Of a stretch of DNA of 64,000 bases, positions 34,860 to 57,170 are shown piece after piece; position 1 is the first letter of the stretch, and every line of letters starts with the position of its first letter. The notes under the pieces are model-generated. The model was not told where the DNA came from. It did no database searches and saw only the letters and a program-made list of their open reading frames with translations. The DNA is from Candidatus Aminicenantes bacterium (GTDB taxonomy: Bacteria > Acidobacteriota > Aminicenantia > Aminicenantales > Saccharicenantaceae). The stretch lies in the NCBI GenBank assembly GCA_963805045.1, contig CAWDTC010000012.1, positions 64,211 through 128,210 on the forward strand, written 5' to 3'. The translations under genes and the position numbers were made by a program.

Positions 34860-34869
34860 GGTCCCCTCC

Positions 34870-38391: not shown

Positions 38392-38420
38392 GGGGACACG
38401 TACCTCCGGTACATGTCCCC
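38392..38420. repeat. palindromic element, family 2 (GGGGACAyGTACC ... GGTACrTGTCCCC)
   Basis: GGGGACACGTACCTCCGGTACATGTCCCC lies between the GT2 start and the TolC stop, followed by ...CCCGATTTA. Confidence 0.8.
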
Positions 38421-38433
38421 GTCTACTCCCGAT

Positions 38434-39994
38434 TTACTTAATATAATCCGTCAGGGTGATGTTCCGCGTCTCGAGCGTCGTGCCCGTGACCTTGGCGATG
38501 TTGGCCAGGGCGATGTTGTAGGTCACGAGGGCGCTCAGCTCGGCCGACCGCGCCGTGGCCAGCTGGTCCTGGTAGGTCAGGACGAAGTAGTTCGTCGAGA
38601 GGCCGACGTTGAGCTTCTTCGTCTCGGCCTCGAGCTGCTTTTCGGCCAGCTCGCGGGCGACCCGGTAGGCGTCGACGCTCTTGGCCGCCGTTTCCAGGGT
38701 CAGCACGGCGTCGCTGACCTCGAGGGCGACCTGCTGCTCCTGGTATCTTGAGCCGGGCCTGGGTCTGCTCGAGGTCGAGCTTGGCGTAGGCGTAGTTCGA
38801 CCGGCCGACGACGTCGCCGAAGGGGATGGTCAGGGTCAGGCCGACCGTCCAGTTGTTGTAGAGGAACTTGAAGGCGTCCCTGAAGGCCTGGCTGGCCTTG
38901 CCCGGGATCGTCCCGACGATGACGCCCGAGAACGGGTCGTTGTTCTCGTAAAGGATCTGGTCGCCCGAGATGCCGGGGCTCGACTTGACGACGTTGAGGT
39001 CGAGCTTCGGCAGGAGCTGGTTGCGGGCGACGGTGAAGTTGACCTTCTTCGTCTCGATGCCGAACTTCGTCGCGTCGAGGTCCGGCCGCCGGGCCATGGC
39101 CTTCGTCAGGGCCTCCTCGTACGTGATCTTGTAGGGCTTGAGCTCGGGCTTGTCGGCCGGCACGAGCGCCGACCCCTTGGCCGCCGGGTCGGCGTCCAGG
39201 TTGAGGAGGGCGGCCAGCTGGTCGCGGCTGCGCCTGACCTGGGCCTCGGCCTGGAGGATGTCCGCCTCGCGCCGGGCGACCGTCGTCTCGGCGTTGAGGA
39301 CCTCGATCGGCGCCTTCTGCCCGACCTCGACCTCCTTCTTCGTCTTCGTCAGGAGGTCGCGGCCGAGGTCGAGCGACTGCTGGAGGGCCTTGAGGTTCTC
39401 GTTCGCGTAGACGAGGTTCCAGTAGGCCTGCTCGACGTTATAGACGGTCGTGATGAGCGTCGTCTTGAAGTTGCTCCGGGAGACGTCGAGCGAGTTCTGG
39501 GCGACGACGATCGACTTGCGGCTGACCGTCCAGCCGAAGTTCCGGAGGAGCGGCTGGGTCAGGCTGAAGCTCAGGTTGCTCTGGTAGGACGGGTTGTAGT
39601 TCTGGAAGAGCTGGTTGACCTTCTGGTAGTTGTAGTTCAGGCCGACGGAGAGGCTCCCGCCGAGCGGGATCTGCTGGGTGATCGTCAGCGGGGAGTAGGC
39701 AGTCCGCTGGACGTAATTTCCGGAGTTCTGGAGGGCCCAGGTCGCCGGCTGCTCGTAGCGCTCCTCCTGGAGGCCGAGCTGGAACGTCGGCATGTACATC
39801 TCCTTGGCCAGGGAGACCTGCGCCCGGGAGATCTCGGGGCCGATGACCTCGGCCGCCACGTTGAGGTTGCCCTTGAGGGCCCTGACGATGGCGTCCTCGA
39901 GCGTCAGGGACATCTCCTTCTTCTCCTGTCCGAAGGAGAAGGCGCCGCACACGGCCAGGGCGATGAGGGTCGCACAGAGCATCCGCTTCTTCAT
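38434..39994 (-). CDS. TolC-family outer membrane efflux protein, one frameshift near the C-terminus
   Basis: Signal MKKRMLCATLIALAVCGAFSFG. LTLEDAIVRALKGNLN start and two OEP repeats. The C-terminal 90 aa are in ORF 38434-38706. Confidence 0.85.
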
Positions 39995-40107
39995 ATCGTC
40001 CTCCATTCAAGGCTTCTCGGAAGAGTGCCCGGTATCCCAGGATCCGCCGGACGGCGCAAAACCACCGTCCCTTATATATACGTTCCGGCCGGCCTTTCGT
40101 TCCGTTC

Positions 40108-41516
40108 TCACGCGGGCCACCGGATGCTGAGATGGATCATCTTGTTGAAGAGCGTCTTGCGGCTGATGCCGAGGATGCGGGCGGCCCGCGTCCGGTTGCC
40201 GCCCGTCTGGCGCAGGGCGTCGAGGATGAGGCCCTTCTCCGCCTCCCCGGCGACGCCCTGCACGGCGTCGCGCAGGGCCTGCGGCGTCCGGACCGGCGGA
40301 GCGGCCGCGCCGCCGGCCTCCGCGGGCGGGGCCGCGGCCGGCGCCCGCAGCCGCAGGGGCAGGTCGCGCTCGTCGAGCCGGCCGCCCTCGGACATGACCA
40401 TGGCCTCGTAGACGACGTTCTCGAGCTCGCGGACGTTGCCCGGCCAGGCGTAGGCGGCGAGCCGGTCCAGCGCCGCCGGAGTGACGCCCTGGACGTCCTT
40501 GCCGAGCTCGGGCGCGAATTTCCGGACGAAGTGCTCGACGAGGAGCGGCATGTCCTCCGGCCGCTCCCGGAGCGGCGGCAGCTCGATCGACAGCACGGCC
40601 AGCCGGAAGTAGAGGTCCTCGCGGAAGCCGCCCTTGCCGGACCTCGGCCTCGAGGTCCTTGTTCGTGGCGGCGATGACCCGGACGTCGACCGGGATGGTC
40701 TTCGTCCCGCCGACCTTGATGATCTCCCGCTCGCCGAGGGCCCGGAGGAGCTTGACCTGGGCGTCCTGCGAGAGCTCGCCGACCTCGTCGAGGAAGATCG
40801 TCCCCTTCTGGGCCAGCTCGAACGTCGCCCGTCTTCTCCGTCCGGGCGTCGGTGAAGGCGCCCTTGACGTGGCCGAAGAACTCGCTCTCGATGAGGTCGC
40901 GGGGGATGGCGCCGCAGTTGACGACGACGAACGGGCCGTCCCGCCGCGGGCTGGCGAAGTGGATGGCCCGGGCGACGAGCTCCTTGCCCGTGCCGCTCTC
41001 GCCGGTGATGAGGACCGTCCCGTCGACCCGGGCGATCTTCTCCATGAGCTGGAAGACGGAGTTCATCCGGCCGCTCGTGCCGACGATGTTCGAGAAGCGG
41101 TAGCGCGAGTGGAGCTCCGAGCGGAGCGTCTCGACCTCCGTCCGCAGCCGCTGGACCTCGAGGAGCCGCGCGACGACGAGGAGCATCTCCTCGTTGTCGA
41201 CGGGCTTCTCCAGGTAGGCGTAGGCGCCGAGCTTGGTCGCCTCGACCGCGCTGCGGATCGTGCCGTAGGCGGTGATGATGATGACGCCCGGCCGCCGGGC
41301 CGCGCCTCCTTCAGCCGGGCCAGGACGTCGAGCCCGGGCATGTCGGGGAGGCTCATGTCGAGGAGGACGACGTCGGGCCCGAAGGCGCCGGGCCGCTTCG
41401 ACCCCGGCCGTCCCGGTCTCGGCCGTCCGGACCTCGTAGCCGTGGTCCTCGAGGAGGAGGGAGAAGATGTCGCGGATGCTCTTCTCGTCGTCGATGATGA
41501 GGATCCTGGGCTTCAT
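40108..41516 (-). CDS. sigma-54-dependent response regulator (NtrC family: receiver, AAA+, HTH), frameshifted
   Basis: Receiver [19 protein letters not shown]+ domain with [19 protein letters not shown] and [13 protein letters not shown] (GAFTGA-type loop). [13 protein letters not shown]-terminal Fis-type [21 protein letters not shown]. Confidence 0.85.
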
Positions 41517-41532
41517 GGGCGCGCTCCGTCTC

Positions 41533-42786
41533 TCATCCCGCGGGCAGGGTGACGAGGACCGTCGTCCCCTCGCCGGGCTTGCTCCGGACCTCGATCTCCC
41601 CGCCGTGCGACTTGACGATGCTGTAGCAGATCGAGAGGCCCAGCCCCGTCCCGCCCTTCTTCGTCGTGAAGAACGGGTCGAAGATCCTGTCCATGTTCTC
41701 CTCGGGGATGCCCTCGCCCGTGTCGGCGACGCGGACGAGGACTCTGGCCGCCGCCCGGCGAGACGACCTCGACCCGGAGCCTGCCGCCGCCCTCCATGGC
41801 CTGGATGGCGTTGAGGAAGATGTTGAGGAAGAGCTGCTTGACCTGGGACTTGTCGCCGTTGAGGAGGACCGGCGCCGGCCGGGAACGTCGTCTCGACCTC
41901 GACGCGCGGCGGCGCGGGCCTGGAAGGAGATGAGGGCCAGGCTCTCCTCGAGCGTCACGACGAGGTCGTGACTGCTCCTTCTTGATCTCGGACGGCCGGG
42001 AGAAGGAGAGCAGCGCGGCCAGGATCTCGTCGATGCGGTCGGTCTCCTGGAGGGCGACGTCGAGGAGCTTCTTCTCCGTCTCCTGCCGGCACTTGCTCTC
42101 CAGGTACTGGAGGGAGGACTTGATGGCCGTCAGGGGGTTCCGGATCTCGTGGGCGGCGCCGGCGGCGAGCTCGCCGATCGTCGCCAGCCGGTCGGCCCGC
42201 GATCATCCGGCGGAAGCGCTCCCGCTGCTCCTTGTAGAGGAGGGCGTTTTCCAGGGCGATGCCGGCCTGGGGGGTCAGGGACTCGATGAAGGCCGAGCTC
42301 GTGCTTCGGTGAACCTCTCCGCCGTCCCTCTTCGGCCCGGACGCAGAGGATGCCGATGAGCCGGTTCATGGAGAGGAGCGGGTAGCAGAGCTCGAAGCCG
42401 AAGGCCCGGAAGACGTCCTTCTCCCGGTCCTCGAGATAGTCGAAGACGCCGGGCTGGGCGCGGACGTCGAGGAAGGTCTTGTTGATCTTGAGCCACTTGG
42501 CCAGGCGGTCGTGGGGCGAGAAGGCGACGTGCCTGAGGAGGGCGTCGTCGAGGCCCAGGCAGGCGGAGAGGCGGAACTGGGCCAGGTCGTTGTCGTAGAC
42601 GAAGAAGGCCAGCCGGTCGACGGGCACCGACTCCTTGACCGTGCCCAGGAAGTTGAGGGCGACCTGGTCGTAGTCCTCGATGAGGTTGAGGCTCTCGGCG
42701 AACTCCCGGAAGATGAGCCGCGTCTCGCCCTCGGCGACCTTGCCGCGCGGCGAGGCGGTGGTGGAAGGACGGAAGAGCGCGCTCAT
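41533..42786 (-). CDS. cytoplasmic sensor histidine kinase (GAF-like N-domain, HisKA, HATPase_c), frameshifted
   Basis: [12 protein letters not shown] is the H-box. The ATPase end reads [32 protein letters not shown]. No TM helix was seen. It lies 16 nt upstream of the response regulator. Confidence 0.8.
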
Positions 42787-43010
42787 CTTTTCAGGCCTTT
42801 TCCGGGCGGAGAGGAAAGCCTCGCGCAACAGGATACAGCAAACCGGGGGAATTGTAAAAGGCGGAGGCTTGGGTAATTCGGGTAGCGCATTTCCCATAGT
42901 TGGGTAAGTCCAGTAACACCTGCGCGCATCTTTTTCCCGGTACGCCCGACCTCGGGCCGCCCTCGAGCTCCCATACTGCAATATTCGGGCCGAATTCCGA
43001 TAAGCAGAGC

Positions 43011-43050
43011 AAGAGGGACAGTCCCCTCCCGGGGGGACAGTCCCTACTCT
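43011..43050. repeat. palindromic element, family 3
   Basis: AAGAGGGACAGTCCCCTCCCGGGGGGACAGTCCCTACTCTT lies in the divergent intergenic region, about 80-110 bp upstream of the sigma-54 promoter. Confidence 0.7.
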
Positions 43051-43125
43051 TCCCAACGGATCGGGCAGGCCGAAAGCGGCTGTCCCCTCCACTCCCGTCA
43101 ACTAATTTTACAGGCGGCCGGCGGT

Positions 43126-43141
43126 TGGCACCGGACTTGCA
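43126..43141 (+). promoter_or_regulatory. sigma-54 (RpoN) -24/-12 promoter
   Basis: TGGCAC-CGGAC-TTGCA matches the TGGCAC-N5-TTGCW consensus exactly. It is 34 nt upstream of the ATG at 43175 (RBS GGAGG) and divergent from the NtrC-type activator operon. Confidence 0.75.
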
Positions 43142-43174
43142 GAAACGGAGGTTGACACGAGTGGAGGAACATCC

Positions 43175-44669
43175 ATGAAGATGCTGAAGATCGTCGCCAT
43201 CGCCCTGACCGTCCTCGTCCTGGCCTGGATCCTCGCGGCCCAGACCGTGCCCCAGGAGTCCCAGAGCATGAAGATCCTCAAGCTCAAGAGCGCCCAGCTC
43301 GCGCTCGAGCTGAGCAAGGCCGATTACGAAAGGTACCTCAAGCTCAAGGAGGACGGCCTGGCCTCTGAGGCCGACTTCGCGCAGCGGCAGACCGCCTACC
43401 TCCAGGCCCAGGTCGCCTACCAGCAGGCCTTCATCAGCTTCATGGGCAGCGAGGCCCGCATCTCGGTCGCCAGCGCGGTCAAGGTCCAGGACCGGAGCGG
43501 AAAGAAGTTCGTCACCGTCACGCTCCGCTACTCCTCGAAGGAGCTCAAGGAGCTGGCCAACCTCAAGATCAGCGCCGAGGACCTCTTCCCGCTCGACTTC
43601 ATGAAGGAGCTCAAGGACGTCTACGTCTCGCTCCTCTCGGAGGGCAAGATCATCTCCGACCCGTACGAAAGGGTCGTCAAGACGCTGCCCATCGAGTCGG
43701 AGCGCGAGGTCACCTTCCAGCTCCTCAAGGACGTCGAGAACCTCGAGGTCAGCGTCTCCTACTCGGGCAAGGAGGAGAAGACCTCCGTCTTCCTCCAGAA
43801 GGGCGTCAGCGCCAACATCGTCACCGTCAACTCGGCCCAGTTCTCGCAGGAGGCCGACCTCGAGGCCACGGCGACCTTCGACCTGTCGCTCGAGAAGTTC
43901 AGCGGCGAGGCCAACGTCTTCAAGCTCGAGGTGGCCAACCTGCCCCAGCAGATCACCTACGAGTTCTCCGACCCGACGACCCAGGCCCGCCTGTCGCAGA
44001 TCAAGTTCAGCGAGGGCGTGACGAGCCTCAAGCTCCAGCTCAAGCTCTACCTGCCGAAGAACCCGGACACGCAGGTCGTCCTCGACAAGCCGCTCGAGTT
44101 CTACGTCCTGGCCATGGACAACGACCAGACGGAGAAGCTCCGGGCGATCGAAAAGGCCAAGCCGGGCGCGGCCATCGAGGCCAAGGACATCGACGCCATC
44201 AAGGCCGGCTCGGCCCGGCTCGAGCTCATCCCGCGCGGCGTGCCCAAGGTCGAGGTCCAGGCCGTCAACCTCTACCACGAGATCAAGGTCGGCGAGACGG
44301 TCAGCATGGACGTCACCATCAAGAACACGGGGACGCGGAAGCTCAACAATATCAGGGTCTTCTGCGACCTGCCGCTCAACTGGCGGGTCGAGATCAAGCC
44401 CGACCTCATCGCCTCGCTCGGGCAGGACAAGGACGAGGTCGTCAACATCAAGTTCATCCCGCCGACGGACGTCTCGGTCGGCGACTACGAGCCCAAGATC
44501 CGGACGGATTCGGCGGCGGAGAACCGCAAGGTCGAGTCCGAGGACAAGATCGTCCGCATCCACATCACCTCGAAGACGAACGTCCTCGGCATCACGGTCC
44601 TCATCCTGCTCCTCGTCGGGCTGCTGGTCGGGCATCGTCGTCTTCGGCATCAAGCTGACCCGGAGATAG
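43175..44669 (+). CDS. membrane-anchored protein: adaptor-like alpha-hairpin plus NEW3/CARDB-like domain plus C-terminal TM anchor (COG1470-like); frameshift near the end
   Basis: N-terminal signal/anchor. LALELSKADYERYLKLKEDGLASEADFAQRQTAYLQAQVAYQQA resembles the coiled-coil hairpin of an efflux adaptor. VSMDVTIKNTGTRKLNNIRVFCDLPLNWRVEIKPD...VSVGDYEPKI matches the NEW3 pattern. The tail TM reads LGITVLILLLVGLLVG. Confidence 0.6.
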
Positions 44670-44677
44670 AGAAGAAT

Positions 44678-44715
44678 GGGGACATGTACCGAGGCGTGCC
44701 GAGGTACGTGTCCCC
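44678..44715. repeat. palindromic element, family 2
   Basis: GGGGACATGTACCGAGGCGTGCCGAGGTACGTGTCCCC lies between the first gene and permease 1. Confidence 0.8.
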
Positions 44716-44737
44716 TCTTGATAAAGGTAAGGTGACG

Positions 44738-46224
44738 ATGTTCGCCACGATCTTCAAGAAAGAGCTCCTGGACCAGATCCTCAGCCCCAAGTTCCTCATC
44801 GTCTCGCTCCTCTGCCTGGTCCTCATCCCGGCCAGCCTGCTCCTGAATTACTCGAGTTACCAGAGCGTCTTCCACGAATTCGACGCCTCCCAGAAGGAGG
44901 CCGCCTCGTCGACGACCATCTACAGGCGGCCGAGCGCCCTCTCGACGTTCGGCATCGGGCTCGAGAGCGTCCTGCCCGGCAAGGTCGCCTTCAGCAAGTA
45001 CGAGACGGACGCCAAGGGCCTCCAGGCCCAGAACGAGGTCCTGAGCCAGATCAACGGCAAGCTCGACTTCGTCGTCATCGTGAGCTTCCTGCTCGGCCTC
45101 TTCGCCATCCTCTACGCCGGGACGATGGCCAGCGGAGAGAAGGAGGCCGGGACCCTCAAGCTCGTCCTCTCGAACCCCGCCCGGCGGAGCACCGTGATCG
45201 GGGCCAAGTTCCTGGGCGGGTTCAGCGTGCTCATGATCCCCTTTGCCGTCAGCACGCTCATCGGCGTCCTGCTCCTCCTCTTCGAGGGGTTCCCGCTCTT
45301 CGCCGCCGGCAACCTGGGCCGGGTCCTGTCCCTCCTTCTCCTCTCCATGCTCTATCTCGCCGCCCTTTTCTCCCTGGGCCTGCTCGTCTCGACCCTGACC
45401 CACCGGACGAGCCTGGCGCTCCTGGCGAGCTTCTTCGTCTGGATCTTCCTGACCTTCGTCATCCCGAAGACGAGCGAGCCTTTGGCCGGCCTCATCCGCC
45501 GCATCCCGAGCGAGGAGGTCATGAAGGCCAACCGGACCCAGGTCCGTAACCAGATCGAGAAGGAGAAGGGCAAGGCCCTGGCGCCCCTGATGGAGAAATA
45601 CCTGCCCAACAGCGGACAGGGCAAATGGGACTGGGACGCCTACACGAAGGCCCGCGGGCCGGTGGCCAAAGAGTTTCGAGGAGCGGCTCGACCAGACCCT
45701 CCAGAAGTTCGACGCCGAATACGAGCAGAAGAAGAGCGCCCGGCGGGCCCTGAGCCTCAACATCGCCCGGCTGTCGCCGGCCTCGTCCTATACGCAGGCG
45801 GCGCTGAATTTCTGCCACACGGGGATCGCCGACCTCGAGAACTTCTCGAGGAGTCTCAAGGCCCACTACATCCTGCTCTACCAGGCCGTTTTCAGGTATT
45901 CGTTCCAGGACACGTTCACGTCCGAGGACGGCCATACCAACCGGTCCATGGGCGGGAGTTCGTCGCCGGAGGGCAAGAACGAGATCCCGAAGTTCCGCTA
46001 CCAGTTCCCGGCCTTCGAGGACACGCTGAAAAGCACGGCGCCGGACATCATCCTGCTCGTCCTCTTCAATTTGTCTTTTCGCCGCGGCTTATTATTCGTT
46101 CATCAGATACGACGTGCGCTAGGCGCTGAAGAGCACGGCGCCGGATATCATCCTGCTCGTTCTCTTCAACCTCGTTTTCTTCGCGGCGGCTTATTATTCG
46201 TTTATTAGATACGACGTGCGCTGA
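44738..46224 (+). CDS. ABC-2-type permease paralog 1 of 8, frameshifted; duplicated 3-prime end
   Basis: MFATIFKKELLDQILSPKF and ASGEKEAGTLKLVLSNP, with five or more further TM helices. LSPASSYTQAA and IPKFRYQFP. The proper C-terminus FIRYDVR is found only in the second copy of the terminal duplication. Confidence 0.7.
46024..46224 (+). repeat. tandem direct duplication (period 100 bp) of the 3-prime coding end of permease 1
   Basis: 46024-46122 and 46124-46224 align base for base with scattered substitutions and a 2-nt indel. Both end ...AGATACGACGTGCGCT(A/G)A. Confidence 0.85.
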
Positions 46225-46272
46225 GTCCGATAATGTACATACATTTGTACATATAGATTGGGGTGATACAGC

Positions 46273-47880
46273 TTGATCCGGACCATCGTCAAGCGCGAGT
46301 TCCTAGACAACCTCCTGTCCTTCAAGTTCATTGCGTGCGTCCTGGTCGCCATCGTCGTATCCCTGACGAGCACGGCGATTCTCACCCGCGATTATCAGGA
46401 CCGGCTGAGGAACTACGACAAGGGGTCGCCGCCGCTAAAGAAACTCTGACTAAAGTCCCCGTCTACTCCGCCCTTAAGGTCAAGCTGTTCCGGAAGCCTA
46501 CCCCCCTGAGCATTTTTGTGGCCGGGATCGAAAGAAAAGCTGGGAGCTACACCGAGATCCCGACGATGGAGATGGATATCCCCGTGTCGCTCAAGGGAGG
46601 TACTGCGAAGAACGAGTTCGCGGCGGTCTTTTCCATCTTCGACTTCTCCTCCGTCATCGTGATCATTTTCACGATCCTGGCCATCTTCCTATCCTACGAT
46701 GCGATTTCGGGAGAAAAGGAGGACGGGCTGCTTTCCCTGACCCTCTCGAATTCGGCGCCGCGCTCCAAGATCCTCCTCGGCAAGTACTTGGGAGCGCTGG
46801 CGTCCGTCGCGGTGCCCGTGGCATTATGCTTCATTCTCGGGACACTCTACGTCCTTTTCTCGAAGAACGTCGAAACGAACAGCCGATTCTTCATGTCCAT
46901 GGGATTGATCTTCTTCGCCGCCCTGCTTTATCTCTCCTGCATCTTGCTTCTGGGCCTCCTCGTTTCCTCCCGGACGAGGACCTCCTTTTCCAGCCTGCTG
47001 CTCCTTCTGGGCTTCTATATCGTCTTTTGCTTTCTTATTCCCCAGGCCGTCAAGAGCTATTCGGCCAATGCCATTGCCCGGCAGACGAGAAATGTCGAAA
47101 CCAATATCGAAAACCTGACCAATGAATGGGACAAAAAGCGCGGCGAGGTCCTGCACAAAGTCTCGTTTAAAAAGCAGTGGATCATCCCTCGCGACGCTTA
47201 TGATATGGAGCGTTACGGTGGGTATCATCCTCAATCGGATCAGCTCGCCGGAAGCCATAGAAAACCAGAATTTGACGACGTCCCTCATGATTCCGATGGA
47301 AAGGGAATACGCTCAGCGATTGTACGATTTGAAATTCAAGGATATTGCGGCCGAAGAGGGCATCCGCAACGAGGTGCATCAGTATTTAGCGTTCATCCCT
47401 TCGGCGAACTTCGGCCGTGTCGCAGGATTAATGGCCGACACGGCCGAGGATTCGGTAAGCCGTTACCTCCACGGTATCGCGGCGTACTGGAACCAATTCA
47501 TGCGTTACTTGGACGGGAAGGATGCCTTTGGTCTGAGGTTCGCATATCCGGGCCCGGATGAGCAGACTCCCTACGAGAGGGACATGGTCAAGAAGATTTC
47601 CGATGATTTCTCGAGGCTCGATAGGGATAAGGCCGTGACCTGGACCGGCCATTATGCCTTCTATCAGGGGAAGTTCTTACAGGAGGCTGTGAAGTATAGG
47701 CCCACGCTGAGTTTTCTCAACTTGGACGACCTGCCGGCGTTCGCCGCCCCTGAGCTCGGCCTAGCCGAGAGACTGCGTGGCACTTTGCTGAACGTCTTCA
47801 TCTTGGTCTTCGAGAATTTGTTGTTCTTCATCTTAGCCTATTTTTCTTTCTCCCGCTATGACCCGAGAAGGACCGATTAA
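46273..47880 (+). CDS. ABC-2-type permease paralog 2 of 8 (lower GC), frameshifted
   Basis: A TTG start gives (M)IRTIVKREFLDNLLSFKF. ISGEKEDGLLSLTLSNS and IPSANFGRVA. The C-terminus is FSRYDPRRTD. Confidence 0.65.
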
Positions 47881-47881
47881 G

Positions 47882-49324
47882 ATGCTTAAGGGCCTGCTGG
47901 GACGACAATTGAGCGAGGATATCCTCACCGCGAGGTTCTTTGTCAGCCTGGCCCTAATCCTGGGGGCGGTCTGCGCCTTTTCCTTAGTGTTTGCCGATCA
48001 GTATCATAGGTCCCAGGCCACCTATGCTGCGGCCGTGGCCAAGAACGATCGCGACCTTCAGCAATTCGCGACGTCGCCCGCGGGAAACCTGGGCTCTTCC
48101 ATGCAGACCTTTCTATTAAGGCCTAGACCTGAGTTATTCATTTCAGAAGGCGGCGAAAGCACGATGCCGCAGGGGCTCCTTTATGAGCCATACAATTACT
48201 CCCTGCAATTGTTGAGCCCGAAGGAGGAAGCCTTCGGCGCCCAGAACTACAGGTCCATCAGCAAGCGCGAAAGTCTCACCGATGTCCTGACGTATTCCCC
48301 CGACCTGATGTTCATCGTTCAAGTCCTGCTGAGCTTCTTCGCCCTGATCCTGGCCTATGGTGCCGTGACCGGCGAAAAAGAGAAGGGGACGTTAGGTCTC
48401 ATCTATTCCAACTCGATAAAACGGGGGCCTTTAATCCTGGCTAAGTATCTCAGCGCCCTCCTGACGGTCGGCATCTCTCTTTTTCTCGGCCTCATTTTAA
48501 GCCTTATCCTTCTCCACGTGTTGTCCGGAGCTCCGCTTTCTTCGTCCTTGATCTTCAGTTTTTTGCTCTTCCTCGTGGTTTCCCTCATCTATCTCTCCGT
48601 CTTCGTTCTCTTGGGGATTGCATGCTCGGTTCTCAGCCATAGGAGCAAAAACAGCCTGGTCCTTTGTCTTTTGGCCTGGGTCTTATTAGTGATTGTCTTC
48701 CCAAGATCAACAGGGATGCTCTTGACGCTCAAGCGCTTTGACGTGCCCACGGGAGAGGAAATCAACCAGTTGGCACAAAAGGCCTCTTATGAAACGGAGG
48801 ACCGGTTAGAAAAGCAGTTGCCACCTGAGTGGTCTCGCTTGGATTTTTCGAAGTATCGCCACAACGAGCTATTCCTAAAGCTACTATTCGCCTATGACAA
48901 GGCTCGTCAAGATGTCTTGGATTACTACCTGCGGAAGAAGCTCTCGGCCATCGAGGCCTCCAGGAAGATCAATTTCCTCTCTCCAGCGTCGCTTTTCGAG
49001 TACTCGGCGTCCTCGGTTTCGGGGACGGGGTTGGTCCATTTCGAGAACCTCTGGATGCAGTCCCAACGCTATGGTGATAGTTTCTTGTCATTTGTCAGGG
49101 ACGAGAGGAGCGTGCTTGAAAAAGGCGCCTTTTTTTATTTGGATAGCGACACGATCTCCGACAAGCCGCTCGACTTCAACGCCATCCCCAAGTTCGAGGA
49201 CCGGCTTCCCCCGGCTGCTGGCCGTCTCAAGGACGCACTTCCCTACCTTGGCCTCTTGGTTTTTTACAATCTCTTTCTTTTCGCTTTCGTCTTCTACAAA
49301 TTCCAAAGCTATGATGTTCGGTGA
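47882..49324 (+). CDS. ABC-2-type permease paralog 3 of 8 (lower GC), intact
   Basis: MLKGLLGRQLSEDILTARF, VTGEKEKGTLGLIYSNS, LSPASLFEYSA and IPKFEDRLP. It ends FQSYDVR. Confidence 0.75.
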   Translation: MLKGLLGRQLSEDILTARFFVSLALILGAVCAFSLVFADQYHRSQATYAAAVAKNDRDLQQFATSPAGNLGSSMQTFLLRPRPELFISEGGESTMPQGLLYEPYNYSLQLLSPKEEAFGAQNYRSISKRESLTDVLTYSPDLMFIVQVLLSFFALILAYGAVTGEKEKGTLGLIYSNSIKRGPLILAKYLSALLTVGISLFLGLILSLILLHVLSGAPLSSSLIFSFLLFLVVSLIYLSVFVLLGIACSVLSHRSKNSLVLCLLAWVLLVIVFPRSTGMLLTLKRFDVPTGEEINQLAQKASYETEDRLEKQLPPEWSRLDFSKYRHNELFLKLLFAYDKARQDVLDYYLRKKLSAIEASRKINFLSPASLFEYSASSVSGTGLVHFENLWMQSQRYGDSFLSFVRDERSVLEKGAFFYLDSDTISDKPLDFNAIPKFEDRLPPAAGRLKDALPYLGLLVFYNLFLFAFVFYKFQSYDVR

Positions 49325-49365
49325 AAAACGAATGTGCTTGCGTTTAAGGATAAATAAAAAAACCT

Positions 49366-49392
49366 GGGACACGTACCAGGGTACATGTCCCC
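49366..49392. repeat. palindromic element, family 2
   Basis: GGGACACGTACCAGGGTACATGTCCCC lies between permease 3 and the ATPase gene. Confidence 0.8.
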
Positions 49393-49412
49393 ATTAAGAG
49401 AGAGGAGGCCAC

Positions 49413-50156
49413 ATGGCAAAACCACAACCCATCCTGAAGACCGAGGACCTGTCCAAACGGTACGAGGACGGCGTCCTGGCGGTAGACCACCTGAACCTGA
49501 ACATCTACCCGGGTGAAGTCTACTGCCTGCTCGGGGCGAACGGCGCGGGGAAGACGACGACGATCAACCTCTTCCTCAACTTCATCCCGCCGACGACCGG
49601 GACCTGCTACGTCAACGGCATCGACGTCACCAAGGACCCGCTCGAGGCCAAGAAGTACGTCTCCTTCGTCTCGGAGAACGTCATGCTCTACGGGAACTTC
49701 ACGGCCCGCCAGAACCTCGACTTCTTCGCCAAACTCGGCGGCAAGACGGCCCTCGCGAAGAACGACTACTACCAGGTCATGCGCCGGGTCTCGCTCCAGG
49801 AGAAGGCCTTCGAGCAGCGGGTCAAGAACTTCTCGAAAGGCATGCGGCAGAAGCTCGGCATCTCGATCGCCGTGATCAAGGACGCGCCGGGGATCCTGCT
49901 CGACGAGCCGACCTCGGGCCTCGACCCCAAGGCGGCCGAGGAGTTCCTGGAGATCCTGGGCGAGCTCAAGAAGGAAGGCAAGGCCATCCTGATGTCGACC
50001 CACGACATCTTCCGGGCGAAAGAGATCGGCGACCGGGTCGGGATCATGAAGGAAGGGCGCCTGGTCATGGAGCGGACGCGCGAGGAGCTCCAGTACGAGG
50101 ACCTGGTCAAGATCTACATCGACTACATGAAGTCCGAGCCGCTGACGCTCCAATAA
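49413..50156 (+). CDS. ABC transporter ATP-binding protein (ABC-2/CcmA-type), intact
   Basis: Walker A GANGAGKTTT, signature FSKGMRQKL, Walker B ILLDEPTSGLD, H-loop STHD. Confidence 0.9.
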   Translation: MAKPQPILKTEDLSKRYEDGVLAVDHLNLNIYPGEVYCLLGANGAGKTTTINLFLNFIPPTTGTCYVNGIDVTKDPLEAKKYVSFVSENVMLYGNFTARQNLDFFAKLGGKTALAKNDYYQVMRRVSLQEKAFEQRVKNFSKGMRQKLGISIAVIKDAPGILLDEPTSGLDPKAAEEFLEILGELKKEGKAILMSTHDIFRAKEIGDRVGIMKEGRLVMERTREELQYEDLVKIYIDYMKSEPLTLQ

Positions 50157-50223
50157 GCGCCAGGGGACATCGCAGGCCCGTCTCCAATGCGGGGCCGGCT
50201 CGGCCAGCCCGGAGACGATCGCC

Positions 50224-51666
50224 ATGCTGAAAACAATCATCAAGAAAGAAGTGCTGGAGACCGTCTTCAGCTACCGTTTCCCGCTCTTCGCCGTCATCTG
50301 CCTCCTCCTCATCCCGCTCGGGATGACCGTCAACCACGCGAACTACGCCAAGCGCGTCCGGGACTACAGCGAGCAGGTCCGGCTCGCCGACGAGGCGGCC
50401 TCGGCCATCAAGATCCAGGACGTCATGGCCGGGACCGTGGCCATCAAGGGGTTCCGCCGCCCCGCCCCGCTCTCCGTCTTCACCCAGGGCTTCGAGAGCA
50501 CGCTCCCCCGCTATTACGAGTTCACCCAGGACGGTTTCAAGCCGGGCGAGTCGGCGAGCGACGACGAATCGATCCTCTCGGTCCAGGGCAAGGTCGATTT
50601 CGTCTTCCTCGTCCAGATGGTCATCAGCCTCATCGCCCTGCTCTTCGCATCCGACATGATCTCGGGCGAAAAGGAGTCGGGGACGCTGCGGGCCATGCTG
50701 GCCAACAGCCTGCCGCGCGACACGCTCCTCGCCGGCAAGATCGGCGGCGGCTATCTCGCGCTGTGGGTCCCGTTCCTCGTCGCCTTCCTGGCCGGGGCCG
50801 TCGTCCTCATGCTCGCTGCCTTCCCGCTCTTCGCCGGAGGGACGGCCGGCCGCGTCCTCCTCATCTTCCTGGTCACGTCCCTCTTCGTCCTGACGTATTT
50901 CACGATCGGCATCGCCGTCTCGACGAGCACGGCCAAGGCCCGGACCTCGCTCGTCGCGATCCTCATCATCTGGGCCGCCTTCCAGCTCATCATCCCCAAG
51001 CTCGGGGACATGGCGGCGCGCCTCATCCACCCGGTCCGGACGGAGACCGAGGTCTCGCTCCAGAAGTCGCTCCTCGTCCGCTCGCTCGACATGGACCAGG
51101 CCAAGGAGCTCGGCCGCCAGTACGACCTCATCTTCGGCGCGGCCCCCAAGGGCGCCGCGGACGACGAGAAGTCGCCGGAAAGGAAGAAGTGGGACCCGCT
51201 CCGCGACGACATCCAGCGGCAGGCCCGGGAGAAGAAGAGCCAGCAGCTCGCGGCCATCGACGAGACGTACGCCCAGGAGAGGCGGCGCCAGCTCGACCTC
51301 GCCGTCGACCTCTCGCTCGTCTCGCCGAGCGCGGCCTTCGCACGGCTCCTCGCCGACGTCTGCGGCACGGGCGAGCTCGAGCGGGCCAAGTACCTCGAGG
51401 CCGTCCGGGCCCACCAGAAGGCCCTCGACAACGAGCTCTTCAGCAAGGTCAAGCGGATCCTCATGATCCACGAGGGCGGGGGCATGTCGATGTCGTTCTC
51501 GGCCATGCCGGTGGACGCATCGAAGCTGCCGAAGTTCACGATCACGCCGGCGACGATGGCGGAGGCATTCAAGGCGAACGTGCGGAGCCTCCTCTCGCTC
51601 CTCTTCTGGCTCGTGGCGCCCTTCGCCTTCGCCTACGCCAGGTTCATCAAGTACGACGTGAGGTGA
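50224..51666 (+). CDS. ABC-2-type permease paralog 4 of 8, intact
   Basis: MLKTIIKKEVLETVFSYRF, ISGEKESGTLRAMLANS, VSPSAAFARLL and LPKFTITPA. It ends FIKYDVR. Confidence 0.75.
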   Translation: MLKTIIKKEVLETVFSYRFPLFAVICLLLIPLGMTVNHANYAKRVRDYSEQVRLADEAASAIKIQDVMAGTVAIKGFRRPAPLSVFTQGFESTLPRYYEFTQDGFKPGESASDDESILSVQGKVDFVFLVQMVISLIALLFASDMISGEKESGTLRAMLANSLPRDTLLAGKIGGGYLALWVPFLVAFLAGAVVLMLAAFPLFAGGTAGRVLLIFLVTSLFVLTYFTIGIAVSTSTAKARTSLVAILIIWAAFQLIIPKLGDMAARLIHPVRTETEVSLQKSLLVRSLDMDQAKELGRQYDLIFGAAPKGAADDEKSPERKKWDPLRDDIQRQAREKKSQQLAAIDETYAQERRRQLDLAVDLSLVSPSAAFARLLADVCGTGELERAKYLEAVRAHQKALDNELFSKVKRILMIHEGGGMSMSFSAMPVDASKLPKFTITPATMAEAFKANVRSLLSLLFWLVAPFAFAYARFIKYDVR

Positions 51667-51684
51667 AAGAGGAGGCGCCGCGCC

Positions 51685-53022
51685 ATGCTAAAAACGATCA
51701 TCAAGCGCGAGATCCTCGAATACCTGAAATCGGCCAGGTTCCTGATCGGCCTCGGCATCACCCTGGCCCTGGCGGCCGGCAGCACGGTCCTCAACGTCCA
51801 GGATTATAAGGGGCGCCTGCAGGACTACCAGTCCGCCCTGCAGGAACTGAAGAGCGACCGTTTCTACATCCGCCTTTACCGCCAGCCCCAGGTCCTCAGC
51901 ACCCTCATCCAGGGCAAGGACCGCAAGCTCGGCAACAGCATCATGTTCACCTACCTGCGGCCTCCCGGCCACGACCTCGGGCTACATGGGCGAGGGACGG
52001 AGCCAGCCCCAGCGCCTCGTCTCCGGCTTCGCGGCCGTCGATTTCGCTTTCATCGTCCGGGTCGTGCTCAGCCTGCTCGTCGTCTTCATCGCCTACAACG
52101 CCGTGGCCGAGGAGAAGGCCTCGGGGACCCTGAAGCTGACCCTGGCCAACCGGGTGCCTCGGGACCAGCTCCTGCTCGGCAAGTTCCTGGGCGGCTGGTT
52201 CGTCATCATGGGCTCGCTCGCCGTCTCCGCCCTCGTCTCCCTGATCATCGTCCTCTCCCATTCCTTCATCGCCTTCGCCGCCGGCGAATGGACCCGCCTC
52301 CTCGCCTTCATCGGGCTCTCCGCCGTCTACCTCACGGTCTTCTACGCGGTCAGCCTGTTCGTATCGGTCCTGGTCGACAGACCCTCCATCTCCCTGATGA
52401 TCCTGCTCCAGGCCTGGGTCTTTCTGATCGTCATTTATCCCAACCTGGGCGTCATCGCCGCGGAGAACCTGACCAGGCTCCCGTCCCAGGAGCAACTCGC
52501 CCAGCAGAAGAACGCGGCCTTCCAGCCCTACGCGGCGGAGCAGAAGAAGACCCAGGAGGCGTTCATCCAAGCCGTCCGCACGGGAGGGGGGATCTCAAAG
52601 GAGCTCGGCGTGCGCAACGTCGAGATCTGGGCCAAGCGGGCCGAACTCGACCACCAGGTCGATGAGGAATACGGCCGGAAGCTCACCGCCCAGACGAACC
52701 TCGCCCGAGCCATCTCACCCTCTCGCCGGCCGTCCTCTTCGACCAGGCCGCCGAGCGGCTCGGCCGCACGGGGATGGCCGAGTACGAGCGCTTCATGCGG
52801 GAGGTCTACCGCTGCTGGCAGCAGGACGTCGAGCGGTCGAAGCTCATGTATACGGACCGCGAAGCTTACAAGAAGGCGCCGCCCCTCGATTTCCGCGTCC
52901 CGGTCGAATCAACCTCCGAGGCCTTCGCCGCGACCTGGCTCGACTGGTTCCTCCTCGCTTTCTTCGGGCTGGCCCTTTTTGCCCTGGCCTATACGGCCTT
53001 CCTGAGAAAGGACGTGAGGTGA
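51685..53022 (+). CDS. ABC-2-type permease paralog 5 of 8, frameshifted
   Basis: MLKTIIKREILEYLKSARF and VAEEKASGTLKLTLANR. After a shift, LSPAVLFDQAA. It ends FLRKDVR. Confidence 0.7.
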
Positions 53023-53026
53023 GGCC

Positions 53027-54428: not shown

Positions 54429-54433
54429 AATAT

Positions 54434-54462
54434 GGGGACATGTACCTAGGGTACGTGTCCCC
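54434..54462. repeat. palindromic element, family 2
   Basis: GGGGACATGTACCTAGGGTACGTGTCCCC followed by GATTTAGGAGG, between permeases 6 and 7. Confidence 0.8.
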
Positions 54463-54479
54463 GATTTAGGAGGAGGCCC

Positions 54480-55733
54480 ATGACCTGGACCATCGCCCGC
54501 AAGGAGATCGCCTCGAACCTCCTGAGCTATAAGTTCTTCGTCGTCCTCCTCCTCATCGTCCTCCTCGTCGCCACGAGCCTGTTCATCATGCACCGCGACT
54601 TCAAGAGCCGCATGGCCGATTACCAGGTCAACCGGCCCAAGCCCGGCGATCCGATGGCGCTCGTCGCCCCCACCCCCTTGTCGATCTTCGCCAAGGGCCT
54701 CGACGACGCCATGACCCGCTCCTTCGAGGTCGCGGTCATCGGCATCACCGTCCGGGCCGGGCAGGCCTCGGGCAACATCATCTATTCCTTCTTCCCCGCG
54801 CCCGACTTCCTCTACGTCGTCCGGGTCGTCCTCTCGCTCGTCGCCCTCCTCTTCGGCTTCGACCAGGTCAGCCGCGAGCGCGAGCAGGGGACGCTGAAGC
54901 TCCTCCTGGGAAGCTCGATCTCCCGGGCCAAGGTCCTCGCCGGCAAGTGGATCGGGAACTTCCTGAGCCTGGCCGTTCCGTTCCTCCTGGTGACGCTGAT
55001 CGGCCTCCGCCCTCCTCTCGCTCGACCCGGACGTCCATTTCTCGGCCGGCGAGCTCGGGCGCCTCGCCCTGATCCTGGGCCTCTCCCTGCTCTACCTGGG
55101 GTTCTTCCTCAGCCTGGGGATTCTCGTCTCGACGCTGACAAAACGGGCCGCGACCTCCGTCGTCGTCCTCCTCTTTCTCTGGGCGCTCTTCGTCTTTGTC
55201 ATCCCGAACCTCGGCACGCTCGTGGCCCGGCAGTTCGTCGCCGTCCCCTCGGTCCGGGCCCTGTCCGAAAAGCAGGAGCAGGCGTGGACGCGGGAGGTCC
55301 TCCTCGGCATCAGCAAGGGCGGGAACTGGGCAGACCACATGCGGACGCTGAGCGCCGAGGACGACCGGATGGCGCAGGACTACCGCTTGAAGTTCGAGCG
55401 GCTGGTCCGGCTCTCCCGGAACATCAACCGTGTTTCGCCCGCGGCCAGCTTCCTTGACGCGGCGAGCGAGATCGCCGGCACGGGCATCGGCGAGGAGACA
55501 CGCCTCAAAGGGGACGTCGTCCGCTACAAGGACTCGATCATCGACCGAATGATCGCCGACGTCGACGCCAGGAAGCGGGACGCGCAGTACCCGGCCTTCA
55601 CCTACAAGCCGCGGCCGCTGGCCGAGATCTTCGCCGCCGGGCGCCCTCTTCGACACGGCCTGGCTCGCCTTTTTCAACATCCTGGCCGTTCGCCCTGGCC
55701 TACGTTGCTTTCGTCCGCTACGACGTGAGGTGA
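54480..55733 (+). CDS. ABC-2-type permease paralog 7 of 8, frameshifted
   Basis: MTWTIARKEIASNLLSYKF, VSREREQGTLKLLLGSS, VSPAASFLDAA and YPAFTYKPRP. After correction it ends FVRYDVR. Confidence 0.7.
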
Positions 55734-55737
55734 GGCC

Positions 55738-57170
55738 ATGATGAAGACGCTCATCACCAAGGAGGTCCGGGCCAACTTCCTGTCCTTCCGGTTCCTGGCG
55801 AGCTTCGTCATCCTCTTCGTCGTCGTCGCCGTCACGGCCCTCGTCCTGGCCGGCGACTACACGCGGAAGCTCGACGAGTATTCCCAGCGCCAGGCCGAGC
55901 TCGAGCGATACCTCCGGAGCTACGCCCATTTCAACCGGATCGGCAACATCGTGACGCCGACGCAGCCGCCCATCCCCTTCCAGGCCCTCGTCCGGGGCCT
56001 GACGGCCGACGTCAACATGGAGGGCTTCGACGACGACCCCCTGCCGGTCATGTTCCCGCTCATCGACCTCGTCTTCATCGTCACCATCCTCATCAGCCTC
56101 ATCGCCCTGATCCTCTCCTACGACGCCGTCTGCGGCGAGAAGGAGGACGGGACGCTGAAGCTGATGCTCTCGAACGGCCTGCGCGCGGTCGAAGATCGTC
56201 CTGGCCAAGCTCGCCGGCGGCGTCGCTGACCCTGGCCGCGCCGTTCCTCGTTTCGCTCGCGACGGGCATGCTCATCATCCTCCTCCACCCGCGGGTCAGC
56301 TGGACGGGCGCGGATTGGGGCGCTCTCGGGCTCATCGTCGCCGGGGCGCTGCTCTACATCGCCGTCTTCTATCTCATCGGCATCTTCATCTCGTCAGCCC
56401 ACAGGTCGAGCGCCTCGTCGATCATGACCTCGCTCTTCGTCTGGGTCCTTCTCGTCCTGGTCGTGCCCAACCTCAGCCCTTACGTTGCTTCGTTCCTCTC
56501 GCCGGCGCCGTCGCGGATCAAGGTCGCACGGGAGGTGCAGCGTCTGACGGACACCGACCGGGACGACTCGGGGAGAAGCTCATGGACCAATACCGGGGCG
56601 AGGTCCTCAAGCAGTACCCGGTTCTTGCCGAGCGGCTGACGGAGAACGAGGTCAAGGCCAGGGTCGCCGCGGACCCCGAATACCGAAAGGCCTACGAGGC
56701 CATGCGGGCGGCCGTCGAGAGGGCTTGGGAGGAGGCCAACCTGACTCCAGAGCGCCAAGGCCGACGCCCTGAACGAGGACCTCAGCCGCAAGGAGACGGC
56801 CCAGACGGGCCTGGCCCGGTCGATCTCCATGGCCTCGCCGCTCGCCGATTTCAGCTATCTCGCGACAGACCTGTCTTCGACCGGGACGGAGAACATGGCC
56901 CACTTCGGGCGGATCGGCGCGGCCTGGGACCAGGCCTTCTTCCGGGAATACCAGCCGAAGAAGATGGCTGAATTGAAGGCGAAAGACCCGACGGCGGACC
57001 TGTGGAATACGGCCATCGACATGACCGATGCCCCGCGGTTCCGCTACGTCGAAGAAGGGCTAGGCGGTCGTGTCAAGGCGGCGCTCCCGCCATTCGCAGT
57101 GCTTCTCGGCTATTGCGTCGTCTTGTTCGCGGCGGCCTACGTCGCCTTCATCCGCTACGACGCCCGCTGA
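55738..57170 (+). CDS. ABC-2-type permease paralog 8 of 8, frameshifted
   Basis: MMKTLITKEVRANFLSFRF, VCGEKEDGTLKLMLSNG, ASPLADFSYLA and APRFRYVEE. It ends FIRYDAR. Confidence 0.7.

Follow-up and report, generated by a model that had tools for sequence, protein, structure and literature searches.

In the 64,000-nucleotide stretch of a Candidatus Aminicenantes genome analysed here (contig CAWDTC010000012.1; hereafter the window), positions 38434-57170 hold a divergent locus in which genes for a TolC-family channel and a two-component system face ten genes for a NEW3-domain membrane protein, a single ATPase of the ATP-binding cassette (ABC) type and eight ABC-2 permease paralogs (P1 to P8; Table 1). 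Judged by sequence comparison, this locus may encode an inducible ABC-2 exporter linked to TolC, with a single ATPase and a single adaptor/TolC duct shared by alternative permease dimers, a reading to which we give an even chance. What we regard as new is the architecture of the adaptor, together with the multiplication of exporter-type membrane subunits beside one ATPase in a single operon. An earlier reading of the letters without database searches (the sequence-only reading) had named the gene classes, and Pfam and NCBIfam scans recovered every one of them in its place; its count of ten plus-strand genes, eight of them permeases, holds after correction of the reading frames. The permease-to-ATPase ratio of 8:1 that it pointed out is real, with a single ATPase within 64 kb, and no further ATPase, permease, adaptor, TolC or activator of the families of the locus occurs elsewhere in the window.

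The membrane parts look like swappable modules when the locus is set beside its relatives. A scan with P4 as query, restricted to one genome per species, gave 19 related loci (denoted by L numbers), all from metagenome-assembled genomes; 17 bear the label Aminicenantes or Aminicenantales, and the remaining two Acidobacteriota or "uncultured Eubacteriales". Compared by tblastn and maps of open reading frames (ORFs), these loci share constant parts, namely TolC beside the NEW3 gene, one ATPase, P4, P7 and P8, and vary in the number of permeases: three in L010, L014, L016 and L019, five in L004 and L015, six in L006 and L013, seven in L003 and L026, eight in the window, ten in L007 and L017, and at least 11 in L008, a locus truncated on either side. 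The variable additions are P1, occasional singletons (Px/Py/Pz) and the pairs P5/P6, P9/P10, P11/P12 and P2/P3, whose members are co-present or co-absent, no locus having one alone. Junctions are mostly ≤4 nt or overlapping within pairs and mostly 16-107 nt between modules. A neighbour-joining tree joins P2 with P11, P3 with P12, P1 with P4 and P9 with P10, without a clean two-clade split of the paralogs, and from the P2-P11 and P3-P12 joins it follows that a pair was duplicated as a pair. Orthologs are 60-90% identical (window P1 is 88% identical to L013 P1, and window P2 88% to L009 P2) against 25-30% for paralogs, and the duplications are therefore old and maintained. The ratio of nonsynonymous to synonymous substitution (dN/dS) is 0.11-0.33 for every paralog, with the ATPase and the regulators in the same range; all permease paralogs are under purifying selection. 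The sequence-only reading had offered either heteromeric permease assemblies on one motor or a single larger machine; pairwise gain and loss favours the former, and the latter finds no support.

Outgroup loci reveal a simpler form of the same cassette. A profile of the NEW3 protein matched 598 clusters at 50% identity (E ≤0.001), most of them full length at ~480-550 aa, with named members in Candidatus Handelsmanbacteria and Gemmatimonadota. The nearest outgroup, L024, holds a GAF kinase, the NEW3 gene, the ATPase and two permeases only, which are orthologs of P7 (47% identity) and P8 (43%). In L020 and L023, from a lineage labelled Gemmatimonadota, permeases of ~520 and ~485 aa are followed by a NEW3 gene that overlaps the outer-membrane channel (OEP) gene by 4 nt; L020 also has the ATPase gene after the OEP gene, genes for a dCache kinase and for a sigma-54 activator upstream, and three sigma-54 promoters. 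L021 and L022, from a lineage with a Handelsmanbacteria label, have an extracytoplasmic-function sigma factor, two permeases and the NEW3 gene. Since the outgroups have two permeases, the ancestral cassette was canonical and the Aminicenantes clade expanded it. The earlier statement that the subunit ratio is not explained by the standard architecture is thus too strong, as the outgroups hold the same cassette with two permeases and the oddity is a lineage-specific expansion.

Two outgroup loci have further genes of their own. L020 encodes four paralogous secreted proteins of 270-305 aa without a Pfam match (3648-6857, 14783-15595), and three of the four are preceded by near-identical sigma-54 promoters, TGG[CT]ACGATAGTTGCA, at 3583, 5874 and 14718; these proteins, which surround the transporter genes, may serve as cargo or partners under common regulation. 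They are followed by two tail-anchored coiled-coil paralogs of 106 and 147 aa, and neither the secreted nor the tail-anchored paralogs have a homolog in the window or the Aminicenantes loci. In L025 (1394-5543, minus strand) the NEW3 gene stands alone beside an extracytoplasmic-function sigma/anti-sigma pair, and the other strand carries a separate small ABC-2 permease (275 aa), an ATPase and a canonical membrane-fusion protein (MFP), an arrangement that is possibly an intermediate or an unrelated neighbour.

The permeases are predicted to be NosY-like from both sequence and structure model. All eight match PF12679 (ABC2_membrane_2) with 36-114 bits, scored on pieces, against a gathering cut-off of 27.2 bits, and the intact P1 of L013 reaches 118 bits. 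Five permeases, P1, P4, P5 and P6 among them, also match DUF3526, as does the P1 ortholog. Hydropathy plots give approximately six transmembrane segments in the 12 orthogroup representatives, and six in P3, which also carries the motif GEKEKGTL. The AlphaFold2 (AF2) model of P4 (predicted local distance difference test score, pLDDT, 77; predicted template-modelling score, pTM, 0.71) consists of an N-terminal amphipathic helix, six transmembrane helices, a small beta-containing loop after the first of them and a large helical insertion before the sixth (residues 274-427, with helices of 31 and 47 residues); with the N terminus inside the cell, both loops would be periplasmic. NosY is the only significant sequence relative in the PDB (hmmsearch E 2.4e-9), and NosY chains hold the top 11 Foldseek places against the P4 model (target-normalised TM-score 0.45-0.78). 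The motif (G/R/E)E(K/R)ExGTL just past the second transmembrane helix is kept in all 14 orthogroups, and its position in the model suggests that it couples the permease to the ATPase. A division of this motif into canonical (A) and degenerate (B) forms within pairs was considered and dropped; all copies are conserved and the first residue alone varies. The ATPase itself shows every expected motif (Walker A GANGAGKT, signature FSKGM, Walker B ILLDE and the H-loop).

Divergence among the permeases is concentrated in the periplasmic parts. Between paralogs the two periplasmic loops are 18-20% identical versus 33-36% for the transmembrane core, and within orthogroups the loops are conserved like the core, at 67-75%. 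The second loop, the DUF3526 insertion, comprises 127-233 residues of proteins that are 415-546 aa long. Nearly all paralogs share a cytoplasmic C-terminal sequence, (F/Y)x(R/K)YD(V/A)R, directly before the stop codon (for example at 46100-46121, 53002-53022, 55713-55733 and 57150-57170), which is possibly a second ATPase contact; the exceptions are P5, with RKDVR, and P2, with RYDPR and three further residues. The P2-P3 pair (46273-49324) has a low G+C content of 0.52-0.55 and a third-position value (GC3) of 0.50-0.68, compared with 0.88-0.98 in the neighbouring genes. The same drop recurs in every pair-carrying genome (L007, L008, L009), and GC3 overall is highest in the core genes and intermediate in the accessory pairs. 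Either lateral acquisition or a different codon selection would account for the low G+C of P2-P3.

The NEW3 protein may be a new kind of periplasmic adaptor, a proposal that we weigh jointly with the exporter reading as a whole and at the same even balance. It has an apparent cleavable signal peptide (cut between ...LAA and Q), a C-terminal transmembrane helix with a short basic tail, and NPCBM_assoc/NEW3 (371-439) as the sole Pfam domain detected. Its AF2 model has an overall pLDDT of 65 and a pTM of 0.33; an N-terminal hairpin (helices 30-59 and 65-90, pLDDT 74-85) precedes several beta-sandwich domains. The hairpin tip carries the motif R53-x3-L57-x6-S64, which is invariant in 29 close relatives. 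Of 110 representatives of 50%-identity clusters, 56% retain R, 89% L and 81% S/T, which places the three among the most conserved positions of the hairpin. The full motif occurs in 58 of the 110 sequences, compared with 17.5 ± 4.3 after shuffling. This pattern, RxxxLxxxxxxS or RLS, is the experimentally defined TolC-binding tip of periplasmic adaptors (PMC3391258). A 71-position hairpin profile built from 46 diverse members was run against 177,635 PDB sequences, and its 16 best hits are all periplasmic adaptors aligned across the RLS region, with E-values of 1.6e-4 for TriAB, 4.2e-4 for 4l8j and 6e-4 for MacA; MexJ, AcrA, EmrA, a MexC-like protein and a putative MacA are among the others, with MexA and ZneB lower, and the MFP hairpins matched extend to an E-value of 0.1. 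As the C terminus would be anchored in the inner membrane, the N-terminal hairpin would form the distal tip of the stalk, the place required of a TolC-docking element.

Beyond the hairpin the protein departs from the known adaptors. No BSH (lipoyl) or HlyD-type Pfam match was found at E ≤0.1, and the hairpin directly follows the signal peptide; beta-barrel and membrane-proximal domains gave no Pfam match either, although the low confidence of the model makes this less than a clean negative. Foldseek searches with the model returned generic Ig-like tandems only (integrins, ciliary proteins; query-normalised TM-score ~0.2), a result uninformative about adaptor function, and the full-length NEW3 profile found no relative among PDB sequences. 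As lipoyl, beta-barrel and membrane-proximal domains went undetected, we describe the protein as adaptor-like through a shared hairpin module and not as a member of the family. The description "adaptor-like" in the sequence-only reading stands for the hairpin, which matches MFP hairpins, and fails for the other adaptor domains.

The TolC-family protein of the locus is, as far as profiles can tell, a divergent outer-membrane factor. It matches Pfam OEP with E 7e-32 and 111 bits in two stretches in the window, and with 3e-46 and 158 bits in three stretches in L013, and two PF02321 repeats were found above the gathering score. The N-terminus resembles a signal peptide without a lipobox. The frameshifted window copy does not fall into the curated NCBIfam subfamilies (74 bits versus 225 for type_I_sec_TolC and 65 versus 210 for NodT). 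Wherever a locus covers this region, the TolC gene adjoins the NEW3 gene, in one orientation or the other; in L015, L019, L020 and L023, which represent two phyla, the two overlap by 4 nt. The use of a TolC channel by this machine had been proposed from the sequence, and with constant adjacency and the 4-nt overlaps in four loci the link is strong.

Expression of the locus is probably under sigma-54 control. The promoter TGGCACCGGACTTGCA is the sole exact consensus match in the 64 kb, and none of 100 shuffles gave any, which bears out the consensus promoter that the sequence-only reading had placed ahead of the plus-strand genes. A ribosome-binding site, GGAGGAA at 43163, lies between this promoter and the NEW3 start, and both it and the -24/-12 elements are invariant across five aligned loci. 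An exact TGGCA[CT]-N5-TTGC occurs in seven of seven loci with the kinase and activator genes (window, L006, L007, L013, L015, L017, L019) and in none of the six loci that lack these genes and have TolC directly against the NEW3 gene; in L015 there are two such sites, divergently placed. In the intergenic region of the window, the block TGCAAtAaTCgGGCCG is a candidate for a weaker sigma-54 promoter of the kinase-activator(-TolC) operon: it is largely invariant and keeps its -24 GG and -12 TTGCA (GG-N10-GC) in five aligned loci, with two consensus mismatches. The GGGTAA block and the two GGGACAGTCCC palindromes (Table 1) are alternative candidates for the binding sites of the activator. In L015 the divergent promoters likewise have a similar GGGTAA pair between them, and a GGAC-N(0-2)-GTCC palindrome occurs at the equivalent place in L006, L007, L013 and L017.

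In its intact ortholog the activator has all domains of the NtrC type. In the window, it matches Response_reg and the first half of Sigma54_activat in Pfam and is interrupted by two indels; its L013 ortholog matches Response_reg (2e-29), Sigma54_activat (2e-68), AAA_lid_14 and HTH_8 (8e-14), with Walker A GESGTGKE and a GAFTGA-type loop, GAFTDA. For the kinase, HATPase_c was detected in the window copy, and GAF_3, HisKA and HATPase_c, with an H-box HEIRNP, in an intact ortholog. No hydrophobic or transmembrane segment was predicted in the kinase ortholog, which therefore senses something cytoplasmic.

The frameshifts in the window are assembly errors and not signs of pseudogenes. Alignment to L013, L006 and L009 reveals ~25 single-base indels, mostly insertions, at 38.4-57.2 kb, which strike the genes of TolC, the activator, the kinase, the NEW3 protein, P1, P2, P5, P6, P7 and P8, and six-frame ORFs with third-position G+C plots reveal many frame changes within presumptive single genes. 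The rest of the window shows the same density of frame switches from one coding segment to the next on the same strand, and the orthologs in short-read genomes are all intact, L013 having a clean ORF for every component; it is from these two observations that we conclude on errors. True inactivation of the paralogs, which the sequence-only reading had named as a ground for abandoning its proposal, is thus not what we found, with window-wide frame switches, intact orthologs and purifying selection. Examples of switches elsewhere in the window lie at 2379-3786, 23068-25873, 26237-27949 and 34390-37600, and the pattern fits an error-prone, insertion-biased assembly. A 762-aa ORF (34390-36678) that strings together Pyr_redox_2, DsrC and DsrE-like domains is probably several genes joined by indels.

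Correction of the frames also settles the gene limits. A 984-aa ORF (43175-46129) that would fuse the adaptor to the first permease was rejected; it results from an inserted C at 44633, and relatives share a conserved stop. The NEW3 protein ends in ...GIVVFGIKLTRR followed by the stop codon TAG at 44667-44669, and P1 starts at 44738; this stop is present in every relative covering the region and, once the frame is corrected, in the window too. The corrected junctions along the ten plus-strand genes are 68, 48, 1, 88, 67, 18, 4, 51 and 4 nt, the tightest being P2-P3 (1 nt), P5-P6 (4 nt) and P7-P8 (4 nt). The earlier statement that most junctions are 1-20 nt accordingly holds for four of the nine, and the other five are longer. 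The last ~100 nt of P1 are tandemly doubled in the window (46030-46230), where ...FAAAYYSFIRYDVR with its stop occurs twice. The P1 3' end is single-copy in L013 and L009, and the doubling is either an assembly artefact or a scar where the P2-P3 module joins.

Repetitive extragenic palindromic (REP)-like elements are scattered through the locus. With ≤2 mismatches the element has 26 matches, compared with 6.8 ± 2.4 in shuffles. Of the five copies in the window, four belong to the locus; one follows TolC, one follows the NEW3 gene, one precedes the ATPase, and the fourth, at 54435, separates P6 from P7 and amounts to 37 nt inserted with respect to L013. These elements might split the operon mRNA into segments of different stability. 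A terminator scan was at chance level (17 observed versus 14.2 expected), its sole strong hairpin being the REP-like repeat, and an Rfam scan of 38-57.6 kb found no known RNA. The G+C content of the window is ~68%, dipping locally to 0.57 at 10001-12000 versus ~0.68 elsewhere. L013 shares both flanks of the locus (57179-60400 and 37588-38337, minus strand). The downstream side has genes for a cytochrome b561-like protein (by the Pfam match of its L013 ortholog), for multihaem cytochromes c and for TsaD, and upstream of TolC there is a family-2 glycosyltransferase (GT2); the flanking genes have no evident functional tie to the transporter.

Table 1. Genes, promoters and repeats of the locus, with positions in the window unless a locus is named
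Feature	Position	Strand	Remarks
TolC-family outer-membrane factor	38434-40006	-	~523 aa; one frameshift ~38745
NtrC-type sigma-54 activator/response regulator	40108-41516	-	frameshifts ~40636, ~40824 (alignment to orthologs)
GAF-HisKA-HATPase histidine kinase, soluble	41533-42786	-	at least 7 single-base insertions in window copy
GGGTAA-repeat block with TTCCCA-N4-TGGGTA dyad	42867-42916		largely invariant in five-locus alignment
Candidate second sigma-54 promoter, block TGCAAtAaTCgGGCCG	42977-42994	-	cGGCCC-N5-TTGCA; faces kinase gene
Palindrome GGGACAGTCCC, two copies	43015-43044		between divergent promoters
Sigma-54 promoter TGGCACCGGACTTGCA	43126-43141 (43125 with leading T)	+	TTGGCAC-N5-TTGCA; 34 nt before ATG 43175
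NEW3/Ig-stalk adaptor-like protein	43175-44669	+	~497 aa; one-base insertion 44633
REP-like hairpin, adaptor-P1 spacer	44679-44714		13-bp stem, GGGGACAYGTACC-(loop)-GGTACRTGTCCCC
Permease P1	44738-46224	+	ABC2_membrane_2 and DUF3526; frameshifts ~45674, ~46074; first stop 46121
Permease P2, long class	46273-47880	+	TTG start; ABC2_membrane_2; frameshifts ~46425, ~47223
Permease P3, intact	47882-49324	+	ABC2_membrane_2 E 6e-25; alternative ATG 47858
ABC ATPase, intact	49413-50156	+	247 aa; ABC_tran E 4e-26; DrrA/GldA/NodI-like
Permease P4, intact	50224-51666	+	480 aa; ABC2_membrane_2 E 1e-32 and DUF3526
Permease P5	51685-53022	+	frameshifts ~51958, ~52717
Permease P6	53027-54428	+	ABC2_membrane_2 E 3e-29, DUF3526 E 1e-9; insertion ~53045 just past start
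Permease P7, short class	54480-55733	+	core pair member; frameshifts ~55010, ~55640, ~55686
Permease P8	55738-57170	+	core pair member; indels ~56183, 56224, 56567, 56746
Further REP-like copies	38393-38419, 49366-49391, 54435-54461, 60293-60319; L004 18357	both orientations	intergenic only

If the locus works as we propose, the soluble GAF kinase would phosphorylate the NtrC-type activator, which would turn on the sigma-54 promoter of the transporter operon and probably also the divergent one of its own operon, including TolC. The single nucleotide-binding protein would act as a dimer beneath NosY-like permeases of six helices, each with a large periplasmic helical domain (DUF3526). Held by its C-terminal anchor in the inner membrane, the adaptor would rise through an Ig-like/NEW3 stalk to an N-terminal MFP-type hairpin that docks the RLS tip onto TolC. 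The working unit would be a permease dimer, ancestrally P7 with P8, and the added permeases (P4, P1, P5/P6, P2/P3, P9/P10, P11/P12) would form alternative dimers that alternate on the same ATPase and duct, each bringing its own periplasmic domain and hence its own substrate range or partner. In this scheme the data show the gene content, the promoter, conservation, the gain and loss of modules, purifying selection and the similarities of fold and motif, whereas we infer the pairing partners, co-transcription, ATPase sharing, TolC contact and the direction and nature of transport. Our guess for the substrate is toxic or amphipathic compounds, or envelope material.

Several observations weigh against this scheme. 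The universality of P4 is partly a search effect, P4 having been the query, and the deep nodes of the tree are unreliable at the 25-30% identity of the paralogs. Minimal loci have three permeases (P4, P7, P8), an odd number that may fit strict pairs only if P4 homodimerises or competes for a partner, and P11/P12 lies between P7 and P8 in L003, L004 and L008, so that adjacency is not absolute; strict adjacent heterodimers are therefore too simple. L015 has a second ATPase gene nearby, and some outgroup loci (L021/L022) are without an adjacent TolC or ATPase. The adaptor assignment has the hairpin as its one adaptor domain, a mediocre NEW3 model and a fold search that returned generic Ig domains only, and the most distant lineages (L020, L021, L023 and L025) do not retain the arginine of the RLS motif.

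The same components could serve a mechanotransducer in the style of NosDFY or LolCDE, which differs from the exporter solely in the substrate path. Here the ATPase would move the DUF3526 domains and the NEW3 stalk to handle periplasmic or outer-leaflet cargo, be it lipid, lipoprotein, polymer or cofactor, perhaps leaving via TolC, with different pairs serving different cargoes. The closest solved relative, NosY, comes from such a machine with a periplasmic accessory protein mounted; each permease exposes ~200 periplasmic residues, with helices of 31 and 47, and the paralog-specific signal lies there; the accessory protein of our locus is likewise anchored in the inner membrane and made mostly of Ig-like, binding-type domains. 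However, TolC adjacency and the RLS hairpin suggest a continuous exit duct as in efflux pumps, and the neighbours of the locus (the GT2 glycosyltransferase, cytochromes and TsaD) include no conserved cargo gene, which leaves this mechanism unlikely, if worth keeping in view, and the proposed choice of cargoes equally so. We consider it distinctly unlikely that the 8:1 ratio is only apparent, the extra permeases drawing on ATPases from elsewhere or acting without one as immunity protein, sensor or scaffold. The second ATPase gene just downstream in L015 (66% identical), the two permeases and NEW3 gene without a nearby ATPase in L021/L022, and the placement of P11/P12 in the operon of the regulators instead of that of the transporter in L015 and L026 would suit this explanation. 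It fits poorly with the single ATPase in the window, with the putative coupling motif and the common (F/Y)xRYDVR tail kept by all paralogs, and with one tightly packed gene string behind one promoter and no other sigma-54 site.

Permease number also bears on whether all permeases might come together, for instance as three heterodimers below a trimeric channel, in one hetero-oligomeric platform served by a single TolC/adaptor funnel. TolC channels are trimers and adaptors usually hexamers, L006 and L013 have exactly six permeases, and all paralogs are retained under selection. Nonetheless, the number ranges from two to at least 11 among close relatives while the other parts stay unchanged, known transporters of this permease fold work as dimers, and a putative coupling motif in each permease would call for as many ATPase subunits as permeases, so a common platform appears very unlikely. 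Scarcely credible, finally, is a locus of redundant or decaying duplicates with one functional pair, in which the frameshifts mark pseudogenes. Nine of the thirteen genes of the uncorrected locus are indeed out of frame somewhere, but the indels also strike the regulators and TolC, the rest of the window is equally dense in them, the orthologs are intact and dN/dS is 0.11-0.33.

The proposed exporter resembles several known systems in part. MacB has a four-helix fold, unlike the NosY-like six-helix permeases here. MacAB-TolC and the systems of the adaptors MacA, AcrA, MexA, EmrA and HlyD likewise co-encode an ABC transporter, an adaptor and a TolC-family channel, but the Aminicenantes loci differ by having, for each ATPase gene, between three and at least 11 permease genes. 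Their adaptors share the RLS-bearing hairpin (PMC3391258). The adaptor of our locus shows none of their lipoyl, beta-barrel and membrane-proximal domains and has instead a signal peptide, an N-terminal hairpin, Ig-like/NEW3 domains and a C-terminal transmembrane helix. E. coli YbhGFSR is an ABC-2 tripartite system with two different permeases, and the permeases of YbhGFSR and of Helicobacter pylori HP1486-HP1489 belong to a different ABC-2 Pfam family from ours. Both systems combine an ABC-2 permease pair with an adaptor and an outer-membrane factor and correspond to the two-permease cassette of L020, L023 and L024; they differ from the present locus in a canonical HlyD-type adaptor, two permeases only and no known sigma-54 two-component switch. 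HP1486-HP1489 is likewise described as an ABC-2 tripartite system with two permeases (PMC9570263).

Two further machines share the permease type. NosDFY(L), which matures nitrous-oxide reductase, contains NosY, the closest solved relative of the permeases (target-normalised Foldseek TM-score 0.69-0.78). Its permeases likewise belong to PF12679 and a periplasmic accessory protein accompanies the permease dimer. However, NosY is a homodimer of ~270 aa, whereas the permeases here have 415-546 aa with the DUF3526 insertion of 127-233 residues; NosD is a beta-helix in place of an Ig/NEW3 stalk, and no nos genes lie nearby, TolC being found instead. GldAFG of Bacteroidota gliding comprises an ATPase, a COG1277-type permease and a large end-anchored periplasmic accessory protein; it has no TolC, one permease gene and a different regulation. 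The NCBIfam hits to this system are weak, with E-values of 4e-5 to 1e-4 for GldF and 7e-41 for GldA, all far below the curated cut-offs, and Pfam scans gave no match of the NEW3 protein to the GldG family.

Sharing of one motor has precedents among importers. In group II energy-coupling factor (ECF) transporters and with MsmX/MsiK, one ATPase serves alternative membrane modules. ECF, MceG and MsmX systems are importers whose modules are scattered through the genome or of different folds, whereas here as many as a dozen exporter-type permeases stand in the operon of the motor. MceG of mycobacteria is described as a shared-motor ATPase (PMC13492129). The locus may be an exporter counterpart of the modular ECF transporters, in which as many as six or more alternative NosY-like dimers, all encoded in one sigma-54 operon, time-share one ATPase dimer and one Ig/NEW3-adaptor/TolC duct, and a class of adaptors with an Ig/NEW3 stalk, a C-terminal anchor and an MFP-type RLS hairpin at the tip may be widespread in Aminicenantes and in the lineages labelled Gemmatimonadota and Handelsmanbacteria; we hold these two proposals jointly, at somewhat less than an even chance. 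Literature searches on DUF3526, PF12679, NEW3, Aminicenantes and shared-ATPase exporters found no description of this system, in line with the earlier remark that no characterised system has this composition.

The usual account of a tripartite pump has a single transporter, a canonical membrane-fusion protein and a TolC, and both the adaptor and the permease number here depart from it. If the reading of this locus is true, the RLS hairpin would be a portable TolC-docking module, and the space in which efflux systems can be sought in uncultured phyla would widen; the family of NEW3 proteins has ~600 clusters at 50% identity. A membrane subunit multiplied to at least 11 copies around one motor would constitute a natural test of how an ABC ATPase chooses its membrane partner, and of whether swapping membrane domains widens the substrate range. 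The two-permease version in the Gemmatimonadota-labelled lineage may open a route to a culturable host.

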